The position numbers were made by a program, and so were the translations under genes. Positions 3,679 to 51,536 of a stretch of DNA of 64,000 nucleotides are shown one piece after another. The first letter of the stretch is position 1. Each line of letters opens with the position of its first letter. Source of the stretch: Oligoflexia bacterium (GTDB lineage Bacteria; Bdellovibrionota; Bdellovibrionia; JABDDW01); assembly GCA_043732305.1 (NCBI GenBank), contig JAYTHU010000102.1, positions 1 to 64,000 of the forward strand. Direction: 5' to 3'. The notes below the pieces were generated by a model. That model saw only the letters and a program-made list of their open reading frames with translations, was not told the DNA's origin and made no database searches.

Positions 3679-3720
3679 TAACAGCAATTTGCCTGGATCT
3701 TTATTTTGAAAGGTAAAGAA

Positions 3721-5859
3721 ATGAAAAAAGCCTGTCTTGTCGCCCTGATCTCACTCCAACTTTCTTTCTCCGGAAATTTTGCGTTTGCCCAAGCAGCTTC
3801 AACTGGAAACTGCGGACAATTTTATTCAGGAAGTACGGCCAGTAGCGTCTGCGCTCCGGCAAATTCCGCATTCGGAAATGTAAATGACCCTTGGGGAACT
3901 GGCACAAGCAGTTCCAGCAGCGACTCTGGGAACGTCTGGAATAATGGCGGAGTCACGGGTGGCGACTGGAACAGCACGAATGCATCTGCCGGATGGGATC
4001 CCTCGACTAGTAACACAGGATACATGGGCGGTTACGGTTCAAGTGGCGGCATATTCAGCAGTCTTGCCCAAGCCACTCCTATTCTCAATGAAAACTACCC
4101 TGCCTATATTGCGAAACTTCGAGCAGACAACGCGTATGCAAAAACTGACGATGAACTTGCACAAATCATCATTAACGAAGGTGTAAAGAACGCAGCAATC
4201 AGTGCGGCAGGAGTAGCTCTAGGCTATGCGACCCTCCAATATATTTATCCGAGGGTGACCTCGGGATTGGCAAATCTTGGCGGCTTAACCATGTACATGG
4301 GATTCGATTGGGCCGCAACCTTCGTTCCAGAAGCAAAAATGATTTTGCGATTAGCGGCTCTCTATTACCAACTCCCGCCAAGTCCGGTCGAGCGGTATGA
4401 TCTTATCACGACCACTGTTATGACTGCTGTAGTTGGAAATGGCGCCGCTGCATTGGGGCAAAACGCATTTTCCAAATATCTGGCGTCACTCTTAAACTAC
4501 CAAACAGCTGTGTTGGCTGGACAAGCTCTAGCCCCTGCCGCAATAGTAGTTTCAGACGGTGTTCTGCAAAATTTTGCGACATCGACTGTTGGTGACCTTG
4601 TCAACGTCATGGTCAAGGGTGGTATTCAACAAGCCCTCATCACAGACGATCTTAGGACTCAAGCAGTCAATACAGTTTTGGCCGACGCCACAGCTACGTT
4701 TGCAAAAACGGAAATACAAAAACACGCTCCTTGGACAACTTGGCTGAGAGAAGCACTTCAAAATAATTTAGCCGTCTACCTGTCCAACGATTCTAAAATG
4801 GCATTATCAGCGGGAATTTCTGGGGCTATTTTCACGTCTCTTTCGTGGGCAACCGTTCACGCGCATGCAAAATCGATCGGCAACGAAACAAAGATTAGAT
4901 TTGAGACTATGGCAAATGCCGAACGGGAAGCCGCTCGCCGCACAATTGAAACTTCAAACTACTACTCTAAACAAACACTGTGGCAGATTGTTCTGCGTTA
5001 TATATTCAACACCTATCCAACAACAGTGACAACGCCCGCAGCGAGACAAGCGTTGGACAAAGAACGTCAGAAAGTTCTTCAGGCACTCTCTATTTCATTC
5101 CCGCTGGTGAAAAACGAGATTCTGGATGAGCGAGCAGATATTTTGGCAGATTTCGATAAAGATCTGTTGGCCAGTAAAACTCAGAGCGCGACAGTTGTTC
5201 GACTTGTTGATCATTCACTGACTGAGATGGCCGCCCATCTGAATTTCTTCTCGCGACTTTATTTTATGAAAACAATCATCGCGGCGATGTATCAAGGTAA
5301 ACATACCCTCACCGCTCAAGATCAAAAAGCCATCGAGACAATTTCCTACGAACTAGGATTAAGCTTACCAGCGATCAACAAAAACAAACTCCAAGGGAAC
5401 GATCCCCGCCTCCAAGACATTGCCACTTTCGACTCGATGCTTGCTCAAATGGCGGACACTTACAGCAAAATGGATGACATCTTGAAAGGCAAAGTCAAAG
5501 TATCCAAAGACTCAGCAATGTTCAAAAATTTAGGAACTTGGGGTAAAGGGGGAACAATCATTCTCGAAGACAAAGTTAAGGGAACTCCTTACGAACAGAT
5601 CGGTCAAGCAGCCGTGGATGGGGAAACGAGTACTACACTGACTGGATCGAAGAATAGCGCGGCAGCAAGCGCGGCGGCGGCGAAGGTTGGCGCAGATCCT
5701 ACAAAAATGTGCGTTTACTTAGGAACTTGCAATCCTAATGGCTCACCCCTGACTCCGGAAAATGCCGTCGTCATGGCGCCGCCAGCACAGCAAGCAGGTT
5801 CAGCACCCGCAGCTAGTCCGGCTTCGGGCGCAGCCAGTGGGCCGGATTTTCATTGGTAG
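3721..5859 (+). CDS. Secreted hypothetical protein with a low-complexity G/S/W N-terminus, an EcsC/DUF697-like hydrophobic region and a possible TerB-like helical segment
   Basis: ATG 3721 follows GAAAGGT. Signal peptide ends AFA. Motifs AAISAAGVALG...DWAATFVPEAKMILRLAALY and FMKTIIAAM...QDQKAIETISYELGLS. Domain calls are tentative. Confidence 0.7.
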   Translation: MKKACLVALISLQLSFSGNFAFAQAASTGNCGQFYSGSTASSVCAPANSAFGNVNDPWGTGTSSSSSDSGNVWNNGGVTGGDWNSTNASAGWDPSTSNTGYMGGYGSSGGIFSSLAQATPILNENYPAYIAKLRADNAYAKTDDELAQIIINEGVKNAAISAAGVALGYATLQYIYPRVTSGLANLGGLTMYMGFDWAATFVPEAKMILRLAALYYQLPPSPVERYDLITTTVMTAVVGNGAAALGQNAFSKYLASLLNYQTAVLAGQALAPAAIVVSDGVLQNFATSTVGDLVNVMVKGGIQQALITDDLRTQAVNTVLADATATFAKTEIQKHAPWTTWLREALQNNLAVYLSNDSKMALSAGISGAIFTSLSWATVHAHAKSIGNETKIRFETMANAEREAARRTIETSNYYSKQTLWQIVLRYIFNTYPTTVTTPAARQALDKERQKVLQALSISFPLVKNEILDERADILADFDKDLLASKTQSATVVRLVDHSLTEMAAHLNFFSRLYFMKTIIAAMYQGKHTLTAQDQKAIETISYELGLSLPAINKNKLQGNDPRLQDIATFDSMLAQMADTYSKMDDILKGKVKVSKDSAMFKNLGTWGKGGTIILEDKVKGTPYEQIGQAAVDGETSTTLTGSKNSAAASAAAAKVGADPTKMCVYLGTCNPNGSPLTPENAVVMAPPAQQAGSAPAASPASGAASGPDFHW

Positions 5860-32606: not shown

Positions 32607-33785
32607 TTAGCGGCGTTGGAATGCGCGATATTTGGAGCCGCCGTTGGCGCCGCTGGAGCTGAAGTCGAAATGGGGATCGAAGCTGAGGTCGATAGTGAGA
32701 CTGGCGATGTAACGGCGATCTTCGGTTTGCCCTGCATAAGCTCCGAGTTCGGTGCCGTAAGTAGCAAAATCTACAGAAAAGTATTTTAAATTTATTGACG
32801 CCCCGGCAGTGTAATAACCTTGATTGACTCCACCTCGAATCGAAAACAGAGAAAATTCCAATTCTACTCCCATATGTAAAAGCATTCCAATTTGCTCGCC
32901 CGCCAGTGTCATGTGTTGGAAATCAATTGCAGGACGAATTTTCAACATTGGTAAATCAAAAGTTGAGGAAAAACCAAGGGTCACATTGTTGTCCATTGGT
33001 GGAGGTGCCACACTTCCAACGGATGGAACAAAAAATGTTTGTCCAATGTTTTGCCAAACAAAAGTCAGGGCAGGATGAACTCCACCTGGAGCTTCTAAAA
33101 GAAATGCGGCATCAGCGCCATAGCCGATCCCGTAGTTGTTCAACAGGCTAGTGAGGTACGCATTTGAAAGACTGGCCACTGTTCCGGGTCCAAGCTTTAA
33201 ACTTCCGCCATACCGCGTGACTCTTTTAAACGCTATTCCGAAACGTAAAATATCGGGTATAAGTGGCAGAGCAAAACCAGTGACAATTCCATTATCGTTC
33301 GTCACGGTTAGAGTGACATTGGAGTAAGCAGGATTGTGCAAAATAAAACTCAAATTTAAAAAATCAAATCCTGCAAATCCGAAATCGCTCATAGAAAAAG
33401 CGAAACAATCTGCAAGACCCATCCAAATTTGTTTACCATAAAATTGTTGAATAATTGTGGCGTAATTTGAAGATGTCGCATTCTGATAATTCGTAAAAGC
33501 ATCTATTGCGTCAGTCCCCACTTGTAATCCAACCAATGCCAAGTGAAACCCTTTAACACGGTCCAAAGCCGCAGGATTATAAAAAAGCGCGTTGTGATCA
33601 TCCACCACGGCAGAGAATGCGTTTCCCATTCCAGCAGCGCGTGCGTTTATGTAATTTTCGCGAATCTCTTGAGCTTGAACTTTAGAATTGAAAATGAAAA
33701 ACGAAAATAAAAATAGCGATGATAAAAAAAGCGTAAATACGAAATGACGTCTTCTGCAGTTTTTAAAAAAGGCACTCACGGGCAT
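32607..33785 (-). CDS. TraF/FadL/PorV-like outer-membrane beta-barrel, paralog A
   Basis: Signal peptide. ARAAGMGNAFSAVVDDHNALFYNPAAL plug motif. C-terminal GVNQGYYTAG...ATYGTELG...EDRRY. Confidence 0.8.
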   Translation of the reverse strand: MPVSAFFKNCRRRHFVFTLFLSSLFLFSFFIFNSKVQAQEIRENYINARAAGMGNAFSAVVDDHNALFYNPAALDRVKGFHLALVGLQVGTDAIDAFTNYQNATSSNYATIIQQFYGKQIWMGLADCFAFSMSDFGFAGFDFLNLSFILHNPAYSNVTLTVTNDNGIVTGFALPLIPDILRFGIAFKRVTRYGGSLKLGPGTVASLSNAYLTSLLNNYGIGYGADAAFLLEAPGGVHPALTFVWQNIGQTFFVPSVGSVAPPPMDNNVTLGFSSTFDLPMLKIRPAIDFQHMTLAGEQIGMLLHMGVELEFSLFSIRGGVNQGYYTAGASINLKYFSVDFATYGTELGAYAGQTEDRRYIASLTIDLSFDPHFDFSSSGANGGSKYRAFQRR

Positions 33786-34657
33786 AAAACATCAATTATA
33801 AGGCCCGTGCCGCCAGGACAAAATGCAGGTGCCACAGGCGTCGCGGTGATCTGACAATATGGTTTGTTGTAGGGAGCTGCTAACCCTACATTTAAATTTG
33901 ATTCACCAACCAAAGTGCGAGCAACCCTAATCATCGTTGGAGTCACACTAGCAGTCGTAGTCACTGAGCAAGCGCCGGGGGCCGAGACTTGAATTTGAGT
34001 GCATGCTGCCAGAAGTGCCGTCAAACTTTGCCCAACTACACCTGCGCCAATGGCCGTCACTGAATCGACAATATTTCCGATGGCCGTTATGACCTCAGCA
34101 CCTTGCGCAGAGGAAAGCTGAGTGCAATTGTTAAAAGTCGCCGTGACAGATCCAGTGTTCAAAGGATCTGCGGTTGAAGCCAACATTGTTCCGAGCTTCG
34201 CAATTTCCACAAAAAGCATGAAGGTATTTTCATCCACCGTGCGAAGAGAAGCCGAAGCCCCAATACTCAGAATAAGGTTTTGGGCGGTCACTTCATCAGA
34301 ATAATTTGCTGCTGTTGATCCTCTGAAAGCAGTAAGTAGTTGAGAAAACAAACTGCTCGAACTTGAACCCAAATTTTGCAGATTTTGTGCAAGTGAGAGC
34401 ATGGACAGTCCGCCTCTTCCCGCATAAGCACTAGCAAGTAAAACTATATTAGTTCGAGTGGCTTGCCCCGCTACAGAGAGGGTCTGCCATTTTTGAATGG
34501 CATCATACCAAAGTGAAGCGTCCACCAATTTTTGGATGTCGATTGAGATTACGGCATCCGAATTTTTAATAGCGATTTCACTGTATAGATTGCAACCACC
34601 AACGTTTGTTAGCGCAATCAAAGTCATCAGAAAAAGAAGTCCAAAGGATCGCTTCAT
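33776..34657 (-). CDS. Ala/Ser/Thr-rich lipoprotein with C-terminal cysteines
   Basis: MKRSFGLLFLMTLIALTNVGGC lipobox, LASAYAGRGG helix motif, six further Cys. Confidence 0.8.
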   Translation of the reverse strand: MKRSFGLLFLMTLIALTNVGGCNLYSEIAIKNSDAVISIDIQKLVDASLWYDAIQKWQTLSVAGQATRTNIVLLASAYAGRGGLSMLSLAQNLQNLGSSSSSLFSQLLTAFRGSTAANYSDEVTAQNLILSIGASASLRTVDENTFMLFVEIAKLGTMLASTADPLNTGSVTATFNNCTQLSSAQGAEVITAIGNIVDSVTAIGAGVVGQSLTALLAACTQIQVSAPGACSVTTTASVTPTMIRVARTLVGESNLNVGLAAPYNKPYCQITATPVAPAFCPGGTGLIIDVLCP

Positions 34658-34737
34658 AGACTTAAATTTTAAAGGATTTTGACGAAAACAGGGAGTCAAT
34701 TGATTGGCGTAGACCAACGCGGCTTAAGAAATTTGGC

Positions 34738-35841
34738 TTAGAATCTGAATCCATAACGGGCCACAAAGCGGCGATCTTCTGTAAACTTCGGATAAACGCC
34801 AATTTCCTCGCCGTAAGTCGTGATCTGGACTTGCTGACCACCAAGATCAACTTCTATTCCAGCAGTGTAATAACCTTCATTATATCCTGCGCGCATATAA
34901 AAAACGTCAGAGAAATTAACTTCTGCACCAGCATGAATATTGCGGATGATACTTTGACTGTAGGGGTTTTGAAGATCACTAAATTGCACAGTGAATGATG
35001 CGCGAGTGTGTTGTCCATCATATGGAAAAATGGCCATTCCCGCGTCCACTTTTTGCATTTGCGGAGGTGGACGAGTAGTTGTGGTGTAGATCATTCCATT
35101 TCCTAGAGTGAAATTGGTGTTGCCTACATCATGAGCCACAACCGTGATTGTTGGTAGCATTGCCCAAGGTGCGGTCAGCATGATACTCCCATCCCATCCA
35201 ACTCCAGTTCCCTCACTTGCTAAATTTGGAATTGAAAGTCCGGTAGCTGATTGCGCGACCGTTGTCGAAATATAAACACGATTGTCTACCTTGCCCATGA
35301 TGCCAATTTTAAGTCGGCCTTCCCAGAGCCTGAAGCAATAACCAATAGCCGCAGCATAATCATTGATATAATTATACTGCATCGTCCCTGTTGCAGAGGA
35401 ATATTGCGCATTTAAACTGTAGTTGGCTAGTCCGCCGATCGCAAAATTTCTCATGACGAGTGTCGGTTGAACTTGAAATTTAGCGTGAAGATTTTTATCA
35501 GGATTTTTCACCGCTAAATTTAAAAGGGCGTTTGGATCTTGCGCTCCGGCGTAGCTGCTCAGATTTGCGCCGATTGCGGAAACAGTGCTGTAATTGGTTT
35601 CTAGTTCAGGATTTATCAAAGATAAATATGTCCCGCGCACTTTTCCTAGCCCTGCGGGATTGACAAAAAGTGCCGTCTCATCATCAACTATTGCAACACC
35701 CGCTCCGCCCATGGCTTCATCACGGGCGCTGCGGAAGTTTTGCGTTTTTTCTTGCGCGACAGCGCCCGTTCCCACAAGCAGAATAAGAACAATTATCGTG
35801 TTCGAAAGTATTGGGAATTTCAATTTCTGCGTTATTTCCAT
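34738..35841 (-). CDS. TraF/FadL/PorV-like outer-membrane beta-barrel, paralog B
   Basis: SARDEAMGGAGVAIVDDETALFVNPAGL, GYNEGYYTAG...TTYGEEIG...EDRRF, terminal YGFRF. Confidence 0.82.
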   Translation of the reverse strand: MEITQKLKFPILSNTIIVLILLVGTGAVAQEKTQNFRSARDEAMGGAGVAIVDDETALFVNPAGLGKVRGTYLSLINPELETNYSTVSAIGANLSSYAGAQDPNALLNLAVKNPDKNLHAKFQVQPTLVMRNFAIGGLANYSLNAQYSSATGTMQYNYINDYAAAIGYCFRLWEGRLKIGIMGKVDNRVYISTTVAQSATGLSIPNLASEGTGVGWDGSIMLTAPWAMLPTITVVAHDVGNTNFTLGNGMIYTTTTRPPPQMQKVDAGMAIFPYDGQHTRASFTVQFSDLQNPYSQSIIRNIHAGAEVNFSDVFYMRAGYNEGYYTAGIEVDLGGQQVQITTYGEEIGVYPKFTEDRRFVARYGFRF

Positions 35842-35847
35842 AACTTC

Positions 35848-35874
35848 TTATCGGTGAATATGAACAATTCTAGC
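35848..35874 (-). promoter_or_regulatory. Possible sigma28-like promoter for the barrel B-lipoprotein-barrel A operon
   Basis: ACCGATAA -10-like box 6 nt upstream of ATG 35841. The -35 match is weak. Confidence 0.35.
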
Positions 35875-36017
35875 CGTCAGTCATATGACAGGACTAAGAT
35901 CCAAATTTTCGTCTCTACAAACTAGTTGAAATTAGAAAATCAATGCGGTTACTCTAATAATACTGCTCAGCACATCGTGTTCGGCAAAAACTATCAACTT
36001 TGCAGAACGGGGACAAA

Positions 36018-36761
36018 ATGACACGTGAATCGAAAAAAACAAATCTCAAAACAACATTGAAAACTTTTGCAGTGATTGCGACATGTGCGATTGCCCTCAC
36101 CGCGTGCGAAACGGCCGAGCAAAATAGCACCGCTCAGGCTCTCACCTGCGTGAACAATGCGGCAAAACTTTCTGCGACTGATCCCGTGACTGCAGCTACA
36201 AACGCAACCGCATGCGAAGCTATTACTTCAAAGCTAGTCAATTCGGCAGAGGCAGCTAAGATCGGTTTCTCCGCAGTGCTTTTGATGTCCCAGAAATTTA
36301 GCCAAATTCAAAACCTTGTGAATGCTCTGAAACAAACCAACAACACGCTAGCCACTGGATTTACGTTTCTGATTTTTGCTGGCGGTTCCGGCAATATCGG
36401 TGATCCCAATTATACTAAAATGCAAACGTACGCTAATCGTTCCGCCAATATTGGCATTTTAGAAGTTTGGTCTATATTCTCAACAGCAAATTTAATTGCA
36501 AGCCTTGGATCACTCACAGCCACTCCGACTCAAGCTCAAGTGACAACGGCTGTAGCGGCACTCAACCCCGCAAATGCGAATATTTCAGGTACACCAGAAA
36601 ATGCTTTAGCAACTGCAGTACTTACAGCTCAACAAAATGCATGTTCAGGATCGGGCAGCAGCTCCACCACTTGCGCAGCCCTAACCAAAGCAATTGGCAG
36701 CGGAGCCACTCCCTCATCAGTGATTTCTGCTCTTCAGGCATACGTAGCCGCCGGGAATTGA
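36018..36761 (+). CDS. Ala/Thr-rich helical lipoprotein with four additional Cys
   Basis: ATG follows GGGGA. Lipobox LTAC. Divergent from barrel B. Confidence 0.8.
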   Translation: MTRESKKTNLKTTLKTFAVIATCAIALTACETAEQNSTAQALTCVNNAAKLSATDPVTAATNATACEAITSKLVNSAEAAKIGFSAVLLMSQKFSQIQNLVNALKQTNNTLATGFTFLIFAGGSGNIGDPNYTKMQTYANRSANIGILEVWSIFSTANLIASLGSLTATPTQAQVTTAVAALNPANANISGTPENALATAVLTAQQNACSGSGSSSTTCAALTKAIGSGATPSSVISALQAYVAAGN

Positions 36762-36858
36762 TTGCCCTTCGCAGCCGCAGGCAGCTAAGGAAAACTTTGT
36801 CTCGAGTTTGAAATCATTACAGACGACTATCACGTCATGTTTTGGTAATGTCACACCT

Positions 36859-39201
36859 ATGAAAAATATATTTTTAGCGCTGTCCGTGATGGTCATATCT
36901 GTCACTATTTGTGAAACGTCGTTTGCAGAAGAATGTAAGGCAAAACTAAGTCATCTGAATCCTAAAATTTATGATCAAGTTTACCTAGATAATAACCCGA
37001 CTGAAACGCCTTATCGTTTCGATTCAATTCGTAAATCACAAGATGACCAACCTGCCGAACAATTGTGGGTCGTGAACAGTGCAGACTATTCGCCAACTGC
37101 TGATCAGGAATTGATTAAAGCTGGATACACGGGTGTGCGAATTTTAAATCCAACAGACAAAGAGATTCTCGAACACTCCGATTTTTTATTAGTTCCCGAA
37201 GTCACTCGCACGATCATGATCGCCCCAAACTCAGAAGAAGACTGGGTCGCTCAAATGCAAACAACAAAAGCTCGCACCAACCTCAAATCTAAACTTAAAA
37301 AGAGCCTCGCCGTTGATGGTGAAGGCAAGCGCGCAGTCACCACTGAATTGGCCAATCTAACTTTGGCGGACTATTCCAAATGGTACACAGAACTTTATCT
37401 TCCAGAAATCATTGGCGGCAAAGAAGGTGGCATGGCCGCCTGGGGGGATGTTTCTCAGTACGCAGCCGAGAAAAAAATTGATATCACCGACGGCAACCTC
37501 AACAAAAAAGTACCCGATCTTCATCGTGTATTTTTCTACTCCAAAGATCATAAACTCATTGGTGGAATGCTATTTCGTGAAATGCACAGCCAAGGATTTA
37601 TTAGCGTTGGAGCTGCGGCCTTTGAATCCAATGCACGCAAACTTTACAATCTTCCCGTTCGCGGATTTAGTGAAATTTTTAATGAAGTGCATCGCTTGGG
37701 TTTCAAATACTTGAGCTATGGAAAAGATTTTTATTATGGCGGTGATTTAAGCATTGGCCTCATGCAAAACAAAGCTAGTCTTGGAATGAGAATCATTATT
37801 CCTCTTCCTTCCGATGAAGGAAACTTCTATCTCACCAAATATTTCTCCAACGCTCCCGCTCGTCTTGGTGCGAGCAAATACGAAAATAAAACTTTCCCTG
37901 GAATGGTTTTCTACGCTATTCGCGGAACTGGTCAAGAGCGTTTGAAAAACTATCATCTCATGCAAGCGTCCCAAGTTGCGACCCGAACAATTCCCGAAGC
38001 AATGTTAGCTGTCGAACAAACAATGGCGGTTCATCAGATTTTAGCAGCTGATAATTCACCTAAGATTGAAGTACCGCAAGGGCTGACGCATGTAAAAATT
38101 CAATCGGTGTCGGCTCTAACCCCTCACAAGCAATATCCTGCACTCTCGACCAGCGGTGGATTAGGTTTCCGAAATTATATATCTGGACATGTTGTATCCA
38201 CAAGTGTGGATATGGCCAATAACTACACTGCGCAAGGTTTTCTGGATTGGGCACTTAGCGTCATGCCAGTCAAAGATTTAGCTCAGGCTAAAACAATCTT
38301 AGCTAAGTTTGTGAGTTTTAAAGAAGATTACGCTCACCCAATAATGCGTCCCATGTTTTTGATCGATGAAAAAAGCGAGATTGAAAATCAAGCAACTCCT
38401 GAAGCCAAGCTTGCAAAGTACAACGAACTCATCATGAAAAATCCATTGGTTGATTTTGAAAAAGGCTTGGATCAAGATCCGTTTTTGGTTCCAATGATTG
38501 AGCGGGCTCGATTCAACCCGGCACGCGTGCGACCGATGGCTATGAATCTCACCAAATCGGATGAAACCCCTTTTCCACTTATTAGCTTCTATTCCAATCA
38601 AGGTTACACGCATCCTATCGAACGCGGCATGCTCAAGAGTAAGGTACTTCAGGCTTCTGGCGTGTACTCCAAGCTTCAGTATGAGGCCCGTCGAAAATAT
38701 CGTGCAGGCGTGAGATACAGATTTAATTTTGACTTCGATCAAAGTCTTAACAATCTGAGCGGACAAGAGCGAAAAATGCAATTGAGCACTCAAAATCGTT
38801 ATAAAAACCCTGAGCTTTTAAAGAAAATGAAAATGCTTTATGACCACGGTCAGGCCTTCACATTTGAAGCTATCGATGAGTCTGTGACCCCACACAAAGT
38901 GTTGGGTGGCATTTTGGGGCTGATCACCGGAAAACTTATAAGCATCGACACCACTATTGGAAATGTCGGAAATATTGATTCCGCACGCATCACGGGAATG
39001 GCACTTTCTGATATTGCAGCTGAACAAGGTTTGGAATTTCTGGATATGGGAATGGTGAGTAATTATTCGAAGAGCTTGCGAGCAGGCTATTACCCTCAAG
39101 TAGAATTTCTTTCATTCCTGAATTCTCCAGAATTCAAATCCGATAGCAAATTTAAATTGCCCGCAGAATGGGTTCCGCCGGGAATCAATCCAGGAAAATA
39201 A
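36859..39201 (+). CDS. Secreted protein with a FemABX/GNAT-like domain and a C-terminal Leu/Phe-tRNA-protein transferase (Aat)-like domain
   Basis: Signal peptide MKNIFLALSVMVISVTICETSFA. Fem/GNAT-like segment KARTNLKSKLKK...LIGGML...GFKYLSYG...GLMQNKASLG. Aat-like segment FNFDFDQ...LYDHGQAFTFE...LGGILGL..G...SARI...GLEFLDMG...SKSLRA...EFL. Confidence 0.7.
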   Translation: MKNIFLALSVMVISVTICETSFAEECKAKLSHLNPKIYDQVYLDNNPTETPYRFDSIRKSQDDQPAEQLWVVNSADYSPTADQELIKAGYTGVRILNPTDKEILEHSDFLLVPEVTRTIMIAPNSEEDWVAQMQTTKARTNLKSKLKKSLAVDGEGKRAVTTELANLTLADYSKWYTELYLPEIIGGKEGGMAAWGDVSQYAAEKKIDITDGNLNKKVPDLHRVFFYSKDHKLIGGMLFREMHSQGFISVGAAAFESNARKLYNLPVRGFSEIFNEVHRLGFKYLSYGKDFYYGGDLSIGLMQNKASLGMRIIIPLPSDEGNFYLTKYFSNAPARLGASKYENKTFPGMVFYAIRGTGQERLKNYHLMQASQVATRTIPEAMLAVEQTMAVHQILAADNSPKIEVPQGLTHVKIQSVSALTPHKQYPALSTSGGLGFRNYISGHVVSTSVDMANNYTAQGFLDWALSVMPVKDLAQAKTILAKFVSFKEDYAHPIMRPMFLIDEKSEIENQATPEAKLAKYNELIMKNPLVDFEKGLDQDPFLVPMIERARFNPARVRPMAMNLTKSDETPFPLISFYSNQGYTHPIERGMLKSKVLQASGVYSKLQYEARRKYRAGVRYRFNFDFDQSLNNLSGQERKMQLSTQNRYKNPELLKKMKMLYDHGQAFTFEAIDESVTPHKVLGGILGLITGKLISIDTTIGNVGNIDSARITGMALSDIAAEQGLEFLDMGMVSNYSKSLRAGYYPQVEFLSFLNSPEFKSDSKFKLPAEWVPPGINPGK

Positions 39202-39427
39202 CGAGGCAACCCTCGTTCTTTTTCCCGTTGACCATTTCGAATTTCCACTGATACCCAGCAAGCTTCAGATATTTTATTGCGATTTTTTGAACGACCCCGG
39301 TTCCTTTGCCCGTCATAATGCGGGCACTGGAAAGGTTGCCACCGGAAACTTTCACCAAGAATTTGTCGAGAGCATCTTCAACTTCATCAGATTTAAAGCC
39401 ATGCAAGTCGAGTAAATCTTTAGCCAT
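39185..39427 (-). CDS. Stand-alone Smr/MutS2-C domain protein
   Basis: LDLHG, ALDKFL, IMTGKGTGV, NEGCLVIFL. Confidence 0.9.
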   Translation of the reverse strand: MAKDLLDLHGFKSDEVEDALDKFLVKVSGGNLSSARIMTGKGTGVVQKIAIKYLKLAGYQWKFEMVNGKKNEGCLVIFLD

Positions 39428-39450
39428 CTTCAAACCTCAACCGAAAAAAT

Positions 39451-40590
39451 TTATAAATCCAAACTCATTTTCGCAATGTATCGGCGATTCTGATTGGGAG
39501 ATCCGCTGGTTCCGATTTCTTCAGCGTAGGTGGCTAAGTCGAGACGAAATATAGAAACTTGCCCGCTGACTCCGGCAGAGACATAACCTTCGGAGACGCC
39601 CACACTATAACTTCCGGTGAGCCAGTTAAAGGCTTTCCAAAAGAGTTCGGCACCCACATGGGAACACTTAATGGCATTTGCATATTGAGTTCCCATGTCA
39701 TGCTCTTCGATCGCAAAACGGGGTTTGAAAACCCAGAATTCCGGGAGATCAAATTTTGCACCGACGTCAAATCGTCTTTGCAAATTAGAGGTGGTCACCA
39801 CAGACTGTTTTGAAATCAAATGAGCATCGCCAAAAAATCCTTCATCCAAAACGTTTCTCACCGCGACACCAATGGTGGGCTTTGCATATTTCAGCCAAGA
39901 GAAAATTCCGGAATCGGCAATAGGCAATGTCCAAAGATATCCAAAGTCGAAATCCACAGTCATGCCTTCTTGAGCATCAGATGCTTGAAGTAAATTTGTG
40001 CTTTGAGCGAGGTCGAATACGGAAACGACTTTATCTATGTAAGCGCGATAAACAATTTTAGGAGAGACACCGATGTTCATTGTTTTATCGTCATTCAAAT
40101 TCCAAGCTTTTGAGAATTGCAGCGTGGAATCTTGAATCGCGAGCAATCCAACGGAAGCACCCGCCGTGGCTGCAATGTCTGCCTCAACTGAAACATCAAC
40201 GGGAATAAATGCGATTCCCCATGAAGGCCAAACCCAAATTCCACCCACTTGAACGCGCGTCGCATAGTGATTACCCATGTCGTTAAGCAAAGCATTAGTG
40301 AGCTTCACCGGATCTGAACCTGCGCCACTGAGATCACTATAAAGATTCATAATCGAGGGGGTTCCACCAGCTTGAATGCCTAGGTTCAAATCGTGAGATT
40401 CAAACCGAGCAAGGCCTGCGGGGTTATAAAACATTGCTTCATAGCTATCCGTCATGGATGTGCCAACCATGCCTCGGCCAGCAACACGGGCGGAAATGTA
40501 GGGTTGATGGAGATAAAAACTCTCTGCTGCGCGAACTTCTTGGCTCGACGCCATTAACAACAGACAAAGCGTAAATAATATTTTGAACAC
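39451..40590 (-). CDS. TraF/FadL/PorV-like outer-membrane beta-barrel, paralog C
   Basis: SARVAGRG...DSYEAMFYNPAGL, GVSEGYVSAG...ATYAEEIG...NRRY. Confidence 0.8.
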   Translation of the reverse strand: MFKILFTLCLLLMASSQEVRAAESFYLHQPYISARVAGRGMVGTSMTDSYEAMFYNPAGLARFESHDLNLGIQAGGTPSIMNLYSDLSGAGSDPVKLTNALLNDMGNHYATRVQVGGIWVWPSWGIAFIPVDVSVEADIAATAGASVGLLAIQDSTLQFSKAWNLNDDKTMNIGVSPKIVYRAYIDKVVSVFDLAQSTNLLQASDAQEGMTVDFDFGYLWTLPIADSGIFSWLKYAKPTIGVAVRNVLDEGFFGDAHLISKQSVVTTSNLQRRFDVGAKFDLPEFWVFKPRFAIEEHDMGTQYANAIKCSHVGAELFWKAFNWLTGSYSVGVSEGYVSAGVSGQVSIFRLDLATYAEEIGTSGSPNQNRRYIAKMSLDL

Positions 40591-40660
40591 CCAGGTCCCC
40601 CGTGTTTAAATGTTTTAAGGTAACCATATAAATCTGCACGAGAGGTCGAGTGAATTGCAA

Positions 40661-41332
40661 ATGAAAAAACTTCTTTTTATAATCACTCTAGGACTAGCCA
40701 TCTTCACCCCTTCTTGGAGTTTGATTTGTCTAGCGGCTTCGCCTGATGAAAACGGAGCAATCACGCCCAAAACGCAAGTCATGGATATTGAAAACACTCC
40801 CGCAGAAACAAAGAGCACCAGTGGAGAAGCGGATCTGGAAAAAAATATGATGCAGAGCACGGCTCCGACCAATCCAAACAAGAAATACGTTGCTAGCCCT
40901 TTGCAGTTTTTTTACTCCGACACTCAATCGCTGAGCGTTTATCTTGGTGCGGCATACTCCAGCCAACCCGCAGTTGTTTATGGTTTAGGAGGATTCAGTT
41001 ACATGCTGCCAAGCCAAAATAGATTTCATTTAGAAGCGGCTTTTGACTCATTGGGCGCGCAAGAAGCACACTTTAGATTGATGGCAAAATGGTACAGTGG
41101 AATTGCCGGAAAGATCAGATCTTACTACAATTTAGGTTTGGGGTTACGAATGCTTTCCAACGACAACTTGGTCGTGATTCTTTCTTGGACTCGATTTTTT
41201 CTACAAGCTGGCGGAGGTTTAGAGTGGAGTTTCACTCAGAATCTTTCATTGCGTGCTGAAGCTTTTACGGCGGGAGATCTAAACTCAAATGCTTACTTGG
41301 GTTTGCTCGCCGGAATTTCTATTGGCTTTTAA
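40661..41332 (+). CDS. Small outer-membrane beta-barrel protein
   Basis: Signal peptide, disordered linker, about 8 amphipathic strands, terminal GISIGF. Confidence 0.75.
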   Translation: MKKLLFIITLGLAIFTPSWSLICLAASPDENGAITPKTQVMDIENTPAETKSTSGEADLEKNMMQSTAPTNPNKKYVASPLQFFYSDTQSLSVYLGAAYSSQPAVVYGLGGFSYMLPSQNRFHLEAAFDSLGAQEAHFRLMAKWYSGIAGKIRSYYNLGLGLRMLSNDNLVVILSWTRFFLQAGGGLEWSFTQNLSLRAEAFTAGDLNSNAYLGLLAGISIGF

Positions 41333-42189: not shown

Positions 42190-44148
42190 GTGTCTCTAAA
42201 ACCTGAGTTGTTTGGCAAATTTATTCTCTTAGACAAAATCGCCGCCGGCGGTATGGCGGAAGTTTATCGCGCCAAGGCTCCGGGCTTAAGCGGTATTGCT
42301 AAAATTATTGCCATCAAGAGAATCTTACCTCAATACTCTGCAAATTCAGAATTTATCGACATGTTTAAAAACGAAGCAAAAATTGCCGTCAATCTCTCTC
42401 AGGCAAATATCGCGACCATTTACGAATTCGGCGAAGAACTTAGCCTCTATTATCTATCCATGGAATTTGTCGATGGCCGAAATCTAAGACAAGTGATTTC
42501 ACGCTGCACCAAACTCCAAAAGTCACTGACCATCGAGCACGGTGTCTACACCATCGCGCAAATATGTACGGGGCTCGATTACGCGCACCGCTGCACCGAC
42601 AAAAACACGGGCAATCCTCTCAACATCATCCATCGAGACATGAGTCCTCAAAATATTATGATCAGTTTTGAAGGCGAAGTAAAATTAGTTGATTTTGGAA
42701 TTGCTAAAGCTGAGAGCCGAATTGACTCAACACGTGCCGGAACTCTCAAAGGCAAATTTGGCTACATGAGTCCCGAGCAAGCCGAAGGCTTGGAATTGGA
42801 CTGGCGTACGGATATTTTCTCTACGGGTATTGTGCTCTGGGAAATTCTAACCGGCGAAAGACTTTTTGTTGCCAATAATGAAATCAACACGATCAAAAAA
42901 ATTCGCGAATGCATTATACCTTCCCCACGTAAAATAAATCCCAATATCAGTGAAGAGCTTGATCGCATCACAATGAAAGCACTCGCGCGTGAAAAAAACT
43001 CGAGATATCAATCAGCGTCGGAAATGTCACGGGACTTGAGCCGCTATCTTTACAAAATCAACCCAGAGTTTACAGCACAAGATCTCAGTCATTTTACTAA
43101 ACTTCTTTTTAAAGAAGAAATTCTCGAAGACAGAAACAAAGTTTCTGAATTCGCTAAAATTGATTTTGCCCGCATGAAAAAAATTGAGCAAAAGACAAAC
43201 CATGATAGCGCTACAACTATCACCCAGACAGACACGGCAACCGACACTAGCCAACTAGGTAAATCGGAAAGCAATCGACCACCAGATAATTTTATTCTCA
43301 ACACTTTCGAAAAAAACAAAGACATTTCATTAGTAGTGGACGCCGCTCGCGTACGACAACATTTAGCAAACAGCCAAGTAGAAATCGTCAGAAGAAAAGC
43401 AAGATCGAGTAACACAGATTCGGAATGGTACGGTCCAGCAAGATCTGCTCAAGAAGGATCCCTATTGAAGTGGCTCCCTGCTGGAATTTTACTGGTGGTA
43501 CTTACCGTGGGAGGATTTACCTTTTTCAAAAATCCTACGCGTTTCTTTAAATTGGGGCAAGGGGCTGTAAACTCTATGACAGCATCACGCACGGAACAAG
43601 CATCAGTCGGAGAAGAGCAAGATTCACAACTGTCAGTAAATCCCGCGGTACCATTACCCCTACCTAAAATTCCCGCGGCCGTCATGCCCGAAGAAAGTGG
43701 AAGGCTCACAATTCGAAGTTTTCCAGCTGGAGCAGAAATCACAACGATCGAAGAAGGTTCACCCGAACAAAAAAGATTCGGAACAACACCTTCGGAAATC
43801 ACACTTCCAATTCGAAGACGTGTCACACTGAGACTTCATCGAGATGGGTATGTTGACACTCACCACGAATTTATAGTAACGAAACCAGTAGAAGCATTGT
43901 CTTTCACAATGGACAAAGCGATTTATGGTTATGTCAATATTGACGTGCAACCTTCCGGATCAGATATTTACATCGATGGCGTAAAACTGGAATCTGCAAC
44001 CAATAAACGAATTCCCATTCCAGCCAACCGTTCCGTAAAAATCACAGCTATCAATCACTTTACTGGATTCAGAGATGAGCAAGTTGTGCTCGTAAAACAA
44101 GACACACTTAAAAGCATCTATCTCTTTCCGCGTCAATCTCGACAGTAA
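42190..44148 (+). CDS. Hanks-type Ser/Thr protein kinase with TM and C-terminal PEGA-like domains
   Basis: GGMAEVY, AIKRILP, HRDMSPQN, DFGIAK, GKFGYMSPEQ, one TM, IRSFPAGA and VQPSGSDIYIDG. Confidence 0.93.
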   Translation: MSLKPELFGKFILLDKIAAGGMAEVYRAKAPGLSGIAKIIAIKRILPQYSANSEFIDMFKNEAKIAVNLSQANIATIYEFGEELSLYYLSMEFVDGRNLRQVISRCTKLQKSLTIEHGVYTIAQICTGLDYAHRCTDKNTGNPLNIIHRDMSPQNIMISFEGEVKLVDFGIAKAESRIDSTRAGTLKGKFGYMSPEQAEGLELDWRTDIFSTGIVLWEILTGERLFVANNEINTIKKIRECIIPSPRKINPNISEELDRITMKALAREKNSRYQSASEMSRDLSRYLYKINPEFTAQDLSHFTKLLFKEEILEDRNKVSEFAKIDFARMKKIEQKTNHDSATTITQTDTATDTSQLGKSESNRPPDNFILNTFEKNKDISLVVDAARVRQHLANSQVEIVRRKARSSNTDSEWYGPARSAQEGSLLKWLPAGILLVVLTVGGFTFFKNPTRFFKLGQGAVNSMTASRTEQASVGEEQDSQLSVNPAVPLPLPKIPAAVMPEESGRLTIRSFPAGAEITTIEEGSPEQKRFGTTPSEITLPIRRRVTLRLHRDGYVDTHHEFIVTKPVEALSFTMDKAIYGYVNIDVQPSGSDIYIDGVKLESATNKRIPIPANRSVKITAINHFTGFRDEQVVLVKQDTLKSIYLFPRQSRQ

Positions 44149-47271: not shown

Positions 47272-50200
47272 TTACTTCCCCGCTTTTTTAAAATGATCGA
47301 ACAAGAACCGCAGCGAATTCTCTAAGTCTCCGGACTGACTCTTCCGCATCAAAAAAGAATTGAAAATGCTAAGTTGTTTACCTTGCCCTAATGTTACACC
47401 CAACGTTTCCAAATTTTGACGAGAAGTTGGGTCGGAAAGCAAAAACGCGCCAGAAGCCCAGACTCCTTGTCCAGCTGAGGTGGTAGAAATATTCTGAAGC
47501 ACAGCTTTTAAAACGGTTTGAGGGTCCAGAGCCTTCACGCGAGGATCTTGGGAATAGGCCGTTAGGCTAGCGAAGAGGGCGTCCATCGACAGCGGATTTT
47601 TCTCGTAAACATCGCCCGCAAGAACCAAGGTGTCTCCAAAATCTGAGCGATTCAGCAATTGCCCAATGAGCTGATGGAACACGTTAAAAGTATTTGGATC
47701 AAGGGCAATCAGATTTGCACACACAGTGTAGAGAAGACTGGAGTCATTTTGCAAATCACTAAAAACCACATTCAAAAGTTTAGTCATAGTGTGAGTGTCG
47801 TTGCTCACGGTTGAAAGAGCTTTTAAGACAGTGGAAAATGTATCCACCACGCCGTCTTCTGCCAGCATCACATGAAAAAGATGAGTTTTAAATTTCGCAT
47901 AATTGTCTGGATGATTGGCACTCAAGTCCCAATACAATTCCAATCCCTGATCCAGAGGGCTAGCTGATCCCATCGAATTGTACTGAGAAAGTAGATTTCC
48001 AATCACCAGTCGCAAATTGATCACATCTTGCGGCCTAATTTTTAATGCAAAGCCTGCAAAAGTTTGCGAAATACTGTATGCTTGTCCTTGTGCGAGGGCT
48101 GCCTGATAACCCATGCTAAGGTTTTCAAAGAATCCTAATTTATTAAATAAATTAATAAGCCCCATGTGATTGACAGTAGGATCTTGGTTTTCTTTATCGG
48201 CATCGGGAGTAGATCGGTAGAGGGCTTGATACTGTCTTTGCAAAACCCGCATCTCTTTATTTGCGGCAATGAGATTAAGCGCTGGAAAATTCAATATCAT
48301 GTTTTCGAAGTGTTTGTTCTTTTCAGAGTTTCCTAGCAGAGGAATGTTAGAGACAGAATATCCCAATTGAAGTTTTTTGAATTGCTCATTCATTGTTTGC
48401 ACAAAATCTGTGGATTTTTCGACAGCTAACTGAAAGGTAGTCCCAATATTTCCAACAGTCGCATATCCAAAATCACCATTGAGTACCAAACTTTCAAGTG
48501 CGTCTAGTCCAGTTTGAATGTGAGCGTGCGTGGAGCCATCGCCACCGTTGCTTAAAGTTACGATCTGCCATTGACTGAGGTTTTTTACAAAGTCAACTGC
48601 AGAGCCATCACGTCCAATATCTTGAAGAGCGGATAAAAATTCTTCAAGATCCGTCGTTCTCAAGATATTAGTCATCATTAAAATGATCGTCGCCTTGAAC
48701 TGATCTTTATTGTACTTGGGGTAATTCCCCTCTTGATATAGCCAAAAATCATTATGTGTTTCAAAATTTTCTCGGGCATATTCAAAAATATTTTGTAAAT
48801 CTTTAACGGAGGCCTTGGGGAAAAAAACTGCGATCTGCGCTTTGACTGAATCGGGATTTGCAACTGTCAGCCTGAAAGTATTTTGACTTTGGAAAACCGG
48901 TTTGGGCGTATTGGAAATCAAATCAACAGTGGTCGAGAGATTTTGAGAAATATTCGATTGGCTTGAAAGCCATCCCAGAATTTTCAAAGCGTTGTCAGCT
49001 TTAGGATGTAAAAATATTGAAGTAGCCAAGGAATCAAGATTGTCGAACACATGATAGGTAGAAGTCCCCATCAAAGAATATAAATTTAATAGCGTGTGCA
49101 ATTGCCCTGATCTCAATAAACTCTCAAGCTGATCTAAAGTTCCGGGCAGAGCGGGAGAATCTTTAATCAATCGACTCATCAGTTGAACAGCCAGTGGCAA
49201 AACTTTTGCTGAACTGAGAACTTGCGTCACGTTATTGAGTTCTGGATCTGCGCCATTGGCATTCAAACATTGCACTGCCTGAGAAAATACATTTCCAGTT
49301 GGTTCAAACAAATCACCTTTGAGATTTAAGCACGGCCCATAATTTCCTTTAACGACTTGCCTATTTTGAGACGAAATATATAGACTTGAAAGTTCACGTC
49401 CTTCTTGCATCGATGACTCGAAATTTGTTTTGAACGGCTTATCGGTGCGTGCCTGAAGTAAATTTCCCTGCGGTTTCACTCCCTGCCTAAGTAAATCGAC
49501 AAGAAAGCTTGTTAGTTTTTCTAAGTCTCCTGACTTAGCCAAAACCCCTAAATACGATATCGCCCCATCAAAATTTGAATTTTGCAAAAGTCTAACAAGT
49601 GCGGGACTAGAACTACTCACATAGGAATTATCCGCCAACATATCGCGCACAAAATCTGAGAATGGAGATTGCTGCGAAAGTTGATTCACGTCACTTAAAA
49701 TTTTGACCGTTTCGCCCAAGCCACCTTGCGAGTCTCCCCAGACGTTTACTAAACTTTGGGCAATGCCGTGAATTTGATTTTTTTGAAAGTCGTCACCCGC
49801 AAGAACTCTTCCAGCCACATGTCTCAAAGCAAGTTCGGGACTACTTTTAAATTTTTGATCGGCTACCCTATTCCAAAGAGCAGCGGCCATTTGATCGTGA
49901 GCAGCATCAATTCCAGAATCTATGTTGACGCTCATTAAAAGTGCCGCAAGATTTTTTGAGGCTGAAGGAAGTTTGTCGGCCACTGCCAATAAGTTATCGT
50001 GAGTAGATTTGGAAATTTTATTCGTACTTCCCGAAAAATGCAAATTGATCCAGGCATCGAGCGCCGGACCAGAAATATTTTCTACTACTAGTCTAGATAG
50101 TATTTCACTGAACGTCTGCGCCTCAGCTTCAGTGAGATCGTCTCCGGCAAAGTCCCAAAATACGCGCAGTGCTGCACGATTGGCCATTTCCCCTAAGGTT

Positions 50201-51423
50201 GGAGCAAAGTCAATGACATGATTTGATTTAAGCGCATCCACCAAAGTGTCGTAGCGCGAACTTCCAGTCAATATCGTCCAAAATCTTCCATAGGCTTCAC
50301 TGTAACCATCTTGTGCTAGCTGTTCGATTGTGTCGAAATTAGCAATGAGTTCAGGAGGCACCTGGCAAAGGTCCGGCGTGGCCACCAAAAGTAGAGGCGC
50401 TGTTTGCAAAAGAAATTCATCATTTTGCGTACGAGTTTTCCCGATGGTCTCGCCTACCATAAAATTTAATAAATTATCTGCCTTGCGAGAATAGCTCACA
50501 TCTTTGCGATGAATCGCTTTCGAGTTAGTAGCGTTTTTAGGAAAACACTCGAGAGGTTGATCCGCTGCACGCACGGTAATTTGCGCGCGCCTAAATAGTT
50601 GAAAATTCCCATCCGGCCTCGACACAAAATATTTCAGAACATCGTTGAAGCCGGTACGATCAGCACTGACCGTATTTTTCATTGTCAGCAAAAGTTTTGG
50701 TTCACCCAGGTGAGTGAAGAGATTGTGGACACTGCCATCGGTCAGCATCGAATTTAATCCCAAAGATAAATTGTCGCTGACTTGTGAAGCATCAAGAGTA
50801 CCGACAGAATTTGCCAGCAAAAGAGCCATGGCCTGCGCTCGAGGCTGATTAAAAAGTGATAACGCGTCGAGTGCTCGAGTTTGAAGACCTGAATCAATCA
50901 AGTTCACAATGTATTGACTGAGTTGAGCTATGTCCGGATCCGGATTCGCCGAACTGTTTTGCGCAAGGGCGACGATGGAAGCTTTGGCAACATGAGTGAT
51001 AAGCCCGGTGCGTGCAAGCACTTCAAAGTTGCGATAAAGCGCTTTGAGATAGCCCTGGTTCTCCATGAGCTTGAGCAAATCCAAAAGTTGCACTTGCCGG
51101 GTGCTTCCCCAAGCGAGATGCAAATTTAGCGCTTGAAACAATTGGTTGAGATCCGCTTCATTGGCAGAGTCCAAAAAGTCTTTCACGGGCTGCATAGCTT
51201 TGCTCGACCCATTGAGACAATTCACCAAAGATTTCACGTTGGTGGCCGTAAAAGTTTGAAAACTTAAAGAGGCAGCTTTACAGCCTTTGATATTTAGAAG
51301 CGCAGGAGATGGGTTATCCACATTGGGCGCACTACTTTGCGGAGTGCAGGCCAGCGTGAATATCGCCGTAGCCGCAAGAAGGGTGATTAGTAATTTAGAC
51401 TTGATGATTTTTATGATCCCCAT
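47272..51423 (-). CDS. Giant (~1380 aa) predicted alpha-helical lipoprotein of unknown function
   Basis: Start set at MGIIKIIKSKLLITLLAATAIFTLAC (lipobox). Leu-rich helical composition. Its stop abuts the next start codon. Confidence 0.8.
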   Translation of the reverse strand: MGIIKIIKSKLLITLLAATAIFTLACTPQSSAPNVDNPSPALLNIKGCKAASLSFQTFTATNVKSLVNCLNGSSKAMQPVKDFLDSANEADLNQLFQALNLHLAWGSTRQVQLLDLLKLMENQGYLKALYRNFEVLARTGLITHVAKASIVALAQNSSANPDPDIAQLSQYIVNLIDSGLQTRALDALSLFNQPRAQAMALLLANSVGTLDASQVSDNLSLGLNSMLTDGSVHNLFTHLGEPKLLLTMKNTVSADRTGFNDVLKYFVSRPDGNFQLFRRAQITVRAADQPLECFPKNATNSKAIHRKDVSYSRKADNLLNFMVGETIGKTRTQNDEFLLQTAPLLLVATPDLCQVPPELIANFDTIEQLAQDGYSEAYGRFWTILTGSSRYDTLVDALKSNHVIDFAPTLGEMANRAALRVFWDFAGDDLTEAEAQTFSEILSRLVVENISGPALDAWINLHFSGSTNKISKSTHDNLLAVADKLPSASKNLAALLMSVNIDSGIDAAHDQMAAALWNRVADQKFKSSPELALRHVAGRVLAGDDFQKNQIHGIAQSLVNVWGDSQGGLGETVKILSDVNQLSQQSPFSDFVRDMLADNSYVSSSSPALVRLLQNSNFDGAISYLGVLAKSGDLEKLTSFLVDLLRQGVKPQGNLLQARTDKPFKTNFESSMQEGRELSSLYISSQNRQVVKGNYGPCLNLKGDLFEPTGNVFSQAVQCLNANGADPELNNVTQVLSSAKVLPLAVQLMSRLIKDSPALPGTLDQLESLLRSGQLHTLLNLYSLMGTSTYHVFDNLDSLATSIFLHPKADNALKILGWLSSQSNISQNLSTTVDLISNTPKPVFQSQNTFRLTVANPDSVKAQIAVFFPKASVKDLQNIFEYARENFETHNDFWLYQEGNYPKYNKDQFKATIILMMTNILRTTDLEEFLSALQDIGRDGSAVDFVKNLSQWQIVTLSNGGDGSTHAHIQTGLDALESLVLNGDFGYATVGNIGTTFQLAVEKSTDFVQTMNEQFKKLQLGYSVSNIPLLGNSEKNKHFENMILNFPALNLIAANKEMRVLQRQYQALYRSTPDADKENQDPTVNHMGLINLFNKLGFFENLSMGYQAALAQGQAYSISQTFAGFALKIRPQDVINLRLVIGNLLSQYNSMGSASPLDQGLELYWDLSANHPDNYAKFKTHLFHVMLAEDGVVDTFSTVLKALSTVSNDTHTMTKLLNVVFSDLQNDSSLLYTVCANLIALDPNTFNVFHQLIGQLLNRSDFGDTLVLAGDVYEKNPLSMDALFASLTAYSQDPRVKALDPQTVLKAVLQNISTTSAGQGVWASGAFLLSDPTSRQNLETLGVTLGQGKQLSIFNSFLMRKSQSGDLENSLRFLFDHFKKAGK

Positions 51424-51536
51424 AACAAGCATGGGTATAGGTGGAAAAGGAGCAAATTCAAAGTAAAAACCCATCCTAGTGTAATTTTTGGCTGATCTTC
51501 TTGCATTTTGTCCCGCCAAAAGGGAAAACTAAAAGC

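Follow-up and report, generated by a model that had tools for sequence, protein, structure and literature searches.

A conserved five-gene module of Bdellovibrionia pairs predicted FadL-fold outer-membrane barrels with candidate lipoprotein lids

Introduction

In the SusC-SusD system, a helical, TPR-containing surface lipoprotein forms a lid on the barrel encoded beside it, SusC, which is a 22-stranded TonB-dependent transporter. Only recently have barrels of the FadL fold been found to serve surface lipoproteins as pedestals, in the BamG-BamH pair of the barrel assembly machinery (BAM) of Bacteroidota, where the barrel holds the lipoprotein on its extracellular strands and where a further pair, BamG2-BamH2, forms a putative operon (PMC12611786, PMC12578637). 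BamH docks on an extracellular pillar of BamG strands 3-7, the C-terminal tail of BamG touches BamD (PMC12611786), and BamG is reported as not deletable (PMC12611786, PMC12578637). Other described systems that bear on the subject are VolA of Vibrio cholerae, a surface lipoprotein and lysophospholipase that is co-expressed with FadL (PMC3656444), and PopA (Bd0427), a 16-stranded Bdellovibrio barrel that forms a homo-oligomeric pentamer (PMC12228718). The present work concerns 64,000 nucleotides of an Oligoflexia bacterium of the class Bdellovibrionia (contig JAYTHU010000102.1 of assembly GCA_043732305.1, positions 1 to 64,000; hereafter the window), and within it a locus that encodes three outer-membrane barrels, A, B and C, and two lipoproteins, L1 and L2. 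The reading that we favour, at slightly better than even, is that these are cognate pairs of barrel and lipoprotein lid, likely serving free-swimming cells as a receptor for a ligand that is greasy or bound to a surface.

Gene order and conservation

Barrel A (32607..33785), its cognate partner L1 (33776..34717) and barrel B (34738..35841) lie on the minus strand, the open reading frames (ORFs) of L1 and A overlapping by 10 bases, while L2 (36000..36761, plus strand) is divergent from B and is usually co-located with barrel C (39451..40590, minus strand). An earlier reading of the window, made from its letters (the sequence-only reading), had placed all of these ORFs, including L1 between A and B and the divergent L2, where they were found here. 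Profile searches of 201 genomes of the phylum Bdellovibrionota detected barrels (B profile) in 186 genomes, including 43 of the 47 of the class, and L1 in 127 (42 of 47 in the class), some weak L1 matches being other TPR lipoproteins, BamD among them (locus L184, for example); L2 was found in 43 genomes, 41 of them in the class. Barrels and lipoproteins, which the sequence-only reading had taken to belong together, are thus co-conserved in related genomes. Each genome holds one copy of each of the five genes. In four class genomes (G009, G019, G034 and G202; sizes of 2.0-2.4 Mb, completeness 97-99%) the searches detected neither barrels nor L1 or L2, and absence of the module showed no association with loss of the pilus or type II secretion system ATPases, which 5/5 module-less genomes keep. 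The 41 class loci considered comprise the window and 40 loci fetched from barrel matches, and as the class genomes are kin, their counts are not independent events; the 98 barrels of these loci divide into three clades with 33, 32 and 33 members, and A, B and C represent three old orthologous lineages. The five genes form a conserved module, and not a chance cluster.

Within the class, L1 lies directly upstream of A in 33/33 loci that hold L1, and B lies upstream of L1 in 30/33. Outside the class, 20 loci were fetched round the best B-profile match: B-L1-A is kept in only two (both of family f12), B and an A-like barrel form a tandem that lacks a lipoprotein in five (families f14 and f24), and B stands alone in the other 13. 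Among 40 L1-like matches of other classes, picked for family spread from about 100, 32 immediately precede a barrel in the same orientation, in most cases with an overlap, and three accompany a weakly scoring barrel. In a tree of 110 sequences, barrels with L1-type neighbours join the A barrels of the class (support 0.82), barrels with L2-type neighbours join its C barrels (support 0.90), and the B orthologues have no upstream lipoprotein. L2 occurs in the same locus as C in 33/33 fetched class loci, eight of which lack B; the two stand apart from B-L1-A in eight fetched loci and also in genome G197, and in an out-of-sample set L2 lies within 5 kb of C in six of eight genomes. On these gene-order, tree and out-of-sample counts, the pairing of L1 with A is firm, that of L2 with C, a weaker link, is probable, and B has no lipoprotein partner of its own.

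Several variant loci were also observed. Contig C190 of genome G000, the genome of the window, carries a second, very divergent overlapping lipoprotein-then-barrel pair (locus L175, 1570-3395; also L177 and L187) that has no Pfam match and whose barrel can be aligned with the profile of A (prob. 81, E 1e-5), keeping an N..P motif at the beta3-beta4 tip. A fourth divergent barrel lies directly upstream of B-L1-A in family f12 (L082, L083), and loci L062, L063, L176 and L139 present second C+L2 pairs (G038, G014), a second, barrel-less L1 (G022) and an A split into two ORFs (G189).

Predicted fold of the barrels

The N-terminal AR..(G/A)(M/R)G...D...A.F.NPA.L and C-terminal GY..AG...TY..E.G...RR motifs, by which the sequence-only reading had recognized the three barrels as paralogues, are invariant in a three-way alignment of A, B and C; its description of them as otherwise diverged has to be softened, since their alignment extends across almost the whole of each protein, at 24-31% identity (E 1e-34 for A with B, and about 5e-17 for C with either). 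No closer barrel paralogue is present in genome G000 (242 contigs, 98.4% complete). None of the three passes a Pfam or NCBIfam cut-off: C reaches 18.4 bits against Toluene_X (PF03349; cut-off 29.7) and A and B do not match it, all three reach 18-42 bits against PorV-family models (cut-off 90) over about 30 N-terminal residues only, and TraF_2 (PF13729) matches none of A, B and C but does match 5 of 70 members of the B alignment. Profile matches past about 100 proteins shrink to the N-terminal motif. The named homologues are 'hypothetical proteins' of Bdellovibrionota, a few distant ones labelled TraF_2, and the ESM Atlas yields only unnamed clusters of Bdellovibrionota, one set with a TraF_2 label (10% of members) and, at 0.91, a TPR cluster of Rhodothermota. 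Searches of PDB sequences with B, as a single sequence and as a profile, returned nothing. A 43%-identical homologue of barrel A, P0153, is filed under a moss species, and probably stems from bacterial contamination of that assembly.

The model of B, built on the 70-row alignment, has a predicted local distance difference test (pLDDT) value of 91.7, 14 strands, of which strands 1 and 2 are interrupted at prolines, and an N-terminal hatch. Its best structural matches (VIA) are FadL, TodX, PorV and three BamG chains, with Z 21.7-24.0, root-mean-square deviation (rmsd) 3.6-5.3 and 272-292 aligned residues; PorV 6h3i_F scores Z 22.9, and the BamG chains are 9hj3_F (Z 22.0, rmsd 4.0, 289 aligned), 9n2d_B (21.8) and 9hjm_F (21.7). 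After this set the next match falls to Z 17.4, with PopA at 10.6, and Foldseek agrees with VIA on the fold (PorV 8gl6_F, E 9e-8). The module barrels are thus predicted to have the FadL superfamily fold, with 14 strands and an NPA hatch, the fold having been modelled for B and extended to A and C solely through alignment; together with the TraF_2 matches in some members of the B alignment, this bears out their earlier classification as barrels of the FadL/PorV/TraF_2 type. The Asn of the hatch is invariant, and its Pro and Ala are at least 90% conserved or invariant, in all three clades. In A and B the hatch has the length found in transport-type FadL, with a median of 31 residues before the NPA Asn (FadL N33-P34, per entry titles), and A has an NP.. 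motif, N151/P152, at its beta3-beta4 tip that is near-invariant in the class.

It is of note that the A barrels of the class carry a tail of about 25 residues past the last strand (window 32607-32680), with an invariant RR end in 33/33, a possible periplasmic binding motif, while B, which ends in RF, and C end in Phe or Leu. Genome G000 also encodes, on contig C215 (locus L188, 3171-4118), a small, weakly B-like barrel that has an NPA-like hatch and no Pfam match.

The lipoproteins L1 and L2

The lipobox Cys (Cys42 in L1, whose likely start is Met21, and Cys36 in L2) is present in 55/55 L1-type rows and 33/33 L2 rows, and further Cys columns are conserved, L2 having four further invariant Cys. 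Where the sequence-only reading had spoken of Cys-bonded lipoproteins, the lipobox and conserved cysteines hold, and the disulphides are putative. The L1 family comprises 540 clusters at E<=1e-30, and L1 and L2 are distant paralogues (hhalign prob. 89, E 2e-6). The L1 model (pLDDT 85.3) is an all-helical, TPR-like domain for which Foldseek returned no match at E<=0.001 and VIA gave generic helical repeats (best Z 10.3), BamH being absent among the matches listed; none of 32 L1 rows matches a TPR family in Pfam, and with the L1 profile the match to BamD (E 3.5e-4) is confined to its first helices. An acidic stretch follows the lipobox Cys in most L2 orthologues, at least two acidic residues being found there in 29/33 L2 rows as against 5/87 lipobox ORFs of this genome. 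GxSxG and GDSL motifs are absent from the 32 L1, 33 L2 and 55 wide-L1 rows.

Predicted complex of A and L1

Complex prediction with A (residues 39-392) and L1 (42-313) gave a score of 0.76, the best of three controls giving 0.00; the pair thereby passed the mark set for this score, which 116/157 solved and 2/215 mismatched pairs reach and which is only roughly valid here, as custom alignments were used. The runs share at least 91% of contacts, with a partner pLDDT of at least 82. In the model, the core of the interface is formed by A 150-156 (HNPAYSN) against L1 92-106, which includes the ASAYAG motif, and L1 43-51, just past the lipidated Cys, also contact the barrel. With A mapped onto the strands of B, 34/34 barrel contact residues fall on extracellular loops or outer strand ends, the orientation being given by the last barrel strand, which ends in the periplasm. 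Conservation of L1 is higher at the interface than in the remainder (0.38 vs 0.28 in alignment A7, 0.50 vs 0.38 in A3). No similar complex was evident by sequence in PDB searches. The model supports binding of L1 to A, and with it the suggestion of the sequence-only reading that barrel and surface lipoprotein form a unit, the contacts being predicted to be extracellular.

Orthologues in Bdellovibrio bacteriovorus

In compact loci the order is addB-A-L1-B-L2-C, followed by an outer-membrane protein gene, and strain 109J has seven tags in the interval from RexA to dephospho-CoA kinase. Bd3139 and Bd3140 are AddA and AddB (PMC3593177), and Bd3148 is a kinase (PMC6733907) whose disruption is reported to abolish predation (fitness 0.003). 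As the layout of the flanking tags matches the compact-locus order, Bd3141-3145 are, by gene order, A, L1, B, L2 and C. In published microarray values relative to attack phase, Bd3141-3144 have levels of 0.08-0.27 under host-independent growth and of 0.54-0.72 once prey has been entered, the corresponding values for Bd3145 being 2.6 and 0.87 (PMC2797640); expression of coaE and the kinase gene nearby is lowered as well, so that the effect may be regional in part. In a published proteome, Bd3141, Bd3143 and Bd3144 dip at 3-4 h and then recover, with similar time courses (r 0.81-0.90, no background distribution standing behind r), and the Bd3145 signal is higher and flatter (PMC12546842). Transposon sequencing (Tn-seq) under four predation conditions gave fitness values of 1.15-1.76 for the A, L1, B and L2 orthologues and 0.51-1.08 for that of C, in a host-independent background in which the A, L1, B and L2 orthologues are repressed (PMC6561027). 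The orthologues of A, L1, B and L2, as assigned by gene order, are therefore attack-phase genes that are dispensable for predation, and that of C behaves differently.

No main text in the searched open literature, which leaves aside subscription journals, bioRxiv supplements and theses, names Bd3141-Bd3146, and the module tags are not named in the searched supplements of PMC12228718 (4 files) and PMC10627809 (10 files). In the searched literature the module genes are so far only uncharacterised supplement rows, and L1 and L2 are the first candidate barrel-anchored surface lipoproteins found there for Bdellovibrio, here with residue-level predictions.

Neighbouring genes and a private insertion

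Between L2 and C, the window holds a lineage-specific insert (36808..39433) of two genes, encoding a signal-peptide protein with a weak Leu/Phe-tRNA-transferase C-terminus (36808-39201, plus strand) and a small Smr protein (39185-39433, minus strand). The former had been taken for a secreted Fem/Aat fusion; its Leu_Phe_trans half finds weak support (E 1.4e-4, 21.8 bits, under the cut-off of 22.7), the Fem half has no family match, and only non-significant GNAT matches were obtained in the PDB. The 797-codon ORF has no full-length match in 40 relatives and short C-terminal matches in 3/40, none at this locus. The gap that holds it and the Smr gene carries unrelated inserts in other genomes, and the two genes are a private insertion, outside the module. 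The proposal that the barrels export or carry this protein as passenger or cargo, which drew on its signal-peptide-like N-terminus and its position inside the cluster, is contradicted by this distribution, the gene being absent from 40/40 other class loci, and has next to no probability.

The module is set among addAB, coaE and kinase genes, as seen in a Pfam scan of the window and in the class loci. The statement that no conjugation or type IX secretion system (T9SS) genes lie in the window agrees with the scans made, of 34 ORFs against Pfam (52 ORFs of at least 120 residues being present) and of 13 ORFs against NCBIfam, apart from weak, sub-cut-off PorV/PorQ matches at the barrel N-termini in NCBIfam; a TraF label carried by distant relatives is not, in this setting, a sign of conjugation. 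A search for SprA gave no match in genome G000, and none in the control genomes either. A scan for promoters and terminators stayed near chance (20 vs 15.0+-4.6 and 16 vs 11.1+-3.7). Other genes of the window include a Ser/Thr kinase with a PEGA domain (42190-44148), by gene order the Bd3148 orthologue, which adjoins the module only in this class; a small unannotated outer-membrane barrel-like protein beside C and coaE (40655-41332), kept in 21/41 class loci, whose sole family signal is a weak OMP_myx_plus match; a 1415-residue lipoprotein-like ORF with no Pfam or NCBIfam match (47272-51519); and a 717-residue secreted-looking, low-complexity ORF (3706-5859).

Proposed mechanism and alternative explanations

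In the favoured reading, that of cognate barrel-lid pairs acting as a receptor, the N-terminal segment and ASAYAG helices of L1 would quite probably grip A at its outer loops and at the beta3-beta4 tip (NPAY). If L1 docks on the outer face of A, as predicted, it must be flipped to the cell surface, an exposure that we infer, as we do the ligand. L2 could well cap C in the same manner, and the lids would work by analogy with SusD on SusC or BamH on BamG. With more doubt, a lid might capture or gate a ligand for a FadL-type hatch and lateral route, and not be a pure scaffold. B is a sister barrel without a lid that shares its regulation with A, L1 and L2, and it may join them in the membrane; the one-to-one copy number and joint loss favour a three-barrel assembly, and the frequent location of B far from L1-A outside the class and the different regulation of C speak against an obligate five-protein complex.

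A number of observations weigh against the proposal. Conservation on the A side of the interface barely exceeds that of the remainder phylum-wide (0.42 vs 0.40, p 0.17), being significant only within the class. Five of the 40 other-class L1-like matches have no adjoining barrel, genomes of f14 and f24 hold an A-like barrel without an upstream lipoprotein, and mirror-tree correlations barely favour the pairs (0.60 and 0.52, vs 0.56 for the A-C background). For the second pair, L2-type status outside the class comes from a short motif (profile prob. only 19.8), L2 and C are on different contigs in 2/8 out-of-sample genomes (G033, G173), and the C orthologue, up 2.6-fold while the L2 orthologue is down 12-fold (PMC2797640), also has a Tn-seq phenotype of its own (PMC6561027). 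Bd3142, the L1 orthologue, is missing from the searched proteome tables (PMC12546842), and an acidic export-type stretch is lacking in most L1 rows.

The strongest rival would have the barrels anchor surface lipoproteins in a larger outer-membrane machine without ligand uptake, as a BAM accessory or as an A+B+C hetero-oligomer with a two-lipoprotein canopy. The ranking of BamG chains among the top structural matches of B (Z 21.7-22.0), the predicted seat of L1 on the A beta3-beta4 tip, which parallels that of BamH on BamG strands 3-7, the single copy of all five genes with their joint absence from four small class genomes, and the conserved C-tail of A, recalling the BamG tail that touches BamD, are all in keeping with such a scaffold. 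It nonetheless appears rather unlikely, as A and B lack the N-terminal extension of BamG (on a crude estimate of cleavage), the insertion fitness of 1.15-1.76 for four of the orthologues contrasts with a BamG reported as not deletable, L1 is all-helical where BamH is not so described, and C is regulated apart. Still more speculative is a phylum-wide display machine, in which A-L1, C-L2 and lidless B would form a three-barrel platform with a helical canopy and the lateral gates of the barrels would handle the acyl chains of their own lipoproteins; we consider it improbable, and if true, lipoproteins would be surfaced without Slam, T9SS or BAM accessories, and the machine would tune how the attack-phase predator presents itself to prey or phage.

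An export pair, in which every barrel would flip its cognate lipoprotein or shuttle it to the surface, in the manner of a PorV shuttle or a Slam-like partner, and the lipoprotein is an adhesin or effector, could account for the strict one-to-one gene pairing and for PorV as a top fold match of B, and the divergent L175 pair retains the motif at the beta3-beta4 tip. A folded protein of 270 residues is, however, too large for a plugged barrel of 14 strands. The modelled interface is large and seems to be a permanent one, and no T9SS family exceeds its cut-off among the 13 window ORFs; the acidic stretch of L2 (29/33 rows) does resemble the surface-export signal of Bacteroidota (PMC12578637), but L1 lacks it, and this explanation seems quite improbable. 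A feeding pair of the VolA-FadL type, in which the lipoprotein, acting as a lipase at the surface, would release fatty acids that the barrel then imports, has the precedent of that system (PMC3656444), the retained NPA hatch and an acyl-CoA synthetase-like gene near the cluster in 14/41 class loci to recommend it. It is very improbable, given the all-helical L1 with no hydrolase fold, the lack of GxSxG or GDSL in L1 and L2 rows, and module genes that are lowest during growth inside prey (PMC12546842). The receptor reading with lipoprotein lids thus remains the favoured one, and points to a small, non-essential system through which lipoprotein arrival and retention at the surface can be studied outside Bacteroidota.

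Comparison with known systems

Membership of the PorV/T9SS, conjugative TraF, PopA and VolA systems was considered and rejected, on family cut-offs, gene context, strand count and hydrolase motif. PopA shares with the module barrels a plug and a weak FadL likeness; the earlier idea of a likeness to such oligomeric porin-like proteins founders on its 16 strands against 14 and on its low structural score with the B model (Z 10.6, where FadL-family chains reach 22-24), and its regulation runs the opposite way, PopA rising about 60-fold in host-independent growth. Unlike VolA, L1 and L2 carry no enzyme motif, and the L1 model has no hydrolase fold. PorV resembles the module barrels in fold and in binding a protein partner on its extracellular side, but the sequence match is confined to the N-terminal 30 residues, far under cut-off, and the partner here would be a co-encoded lipoprotein. 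The likeness to FadL and TodX lies in the predicted fold (Z 23-24, rmsd 3.6-4.0, 287-292 aligned) and in an NPA hatch of the same length, the differences in an identity of 11-16%, under the Toluene_X cut-off, in a predicted dedicated lipoprotein lid, and in canonical FadL being a separate gene where present (L180, 127 bits). The predicted lid layout is that of SusC-SusD, on barrels that are small, 14-stranded and of the FadL fold.

BamG-BamH offers the closest parallel, with a 14-stranded FadL-fold barrel, a lipoprotein docked (here by prediction) on its extracellular side, and paired genes, L1 43-51 being predicted to contact A as the BamH tail contacts BamG (PMC12611786). The two differ in the helical, TPR-like nature of L1, not described for BamH; in barrels A and B of FadL length, and C longer by about 4, against a BamG N-terminal extension of about 10-12 residues (a crude estimate from A-x-A cleavage); and in the dispensable, attack-phase-biased orthologues and the three barrel lineages with two cognate lipoproteins. 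Because A and B lack the extension, the orthologues are not essential and the lipoprotein fold differs, A-L1 is architecturally like BamG-BamH but not a member of that system: it is an unrelated, phylum-wide case with a different and uncharacterised lipoprotein family, in a genetically tractable predator (Bd3141-Bd3145, by gene order).

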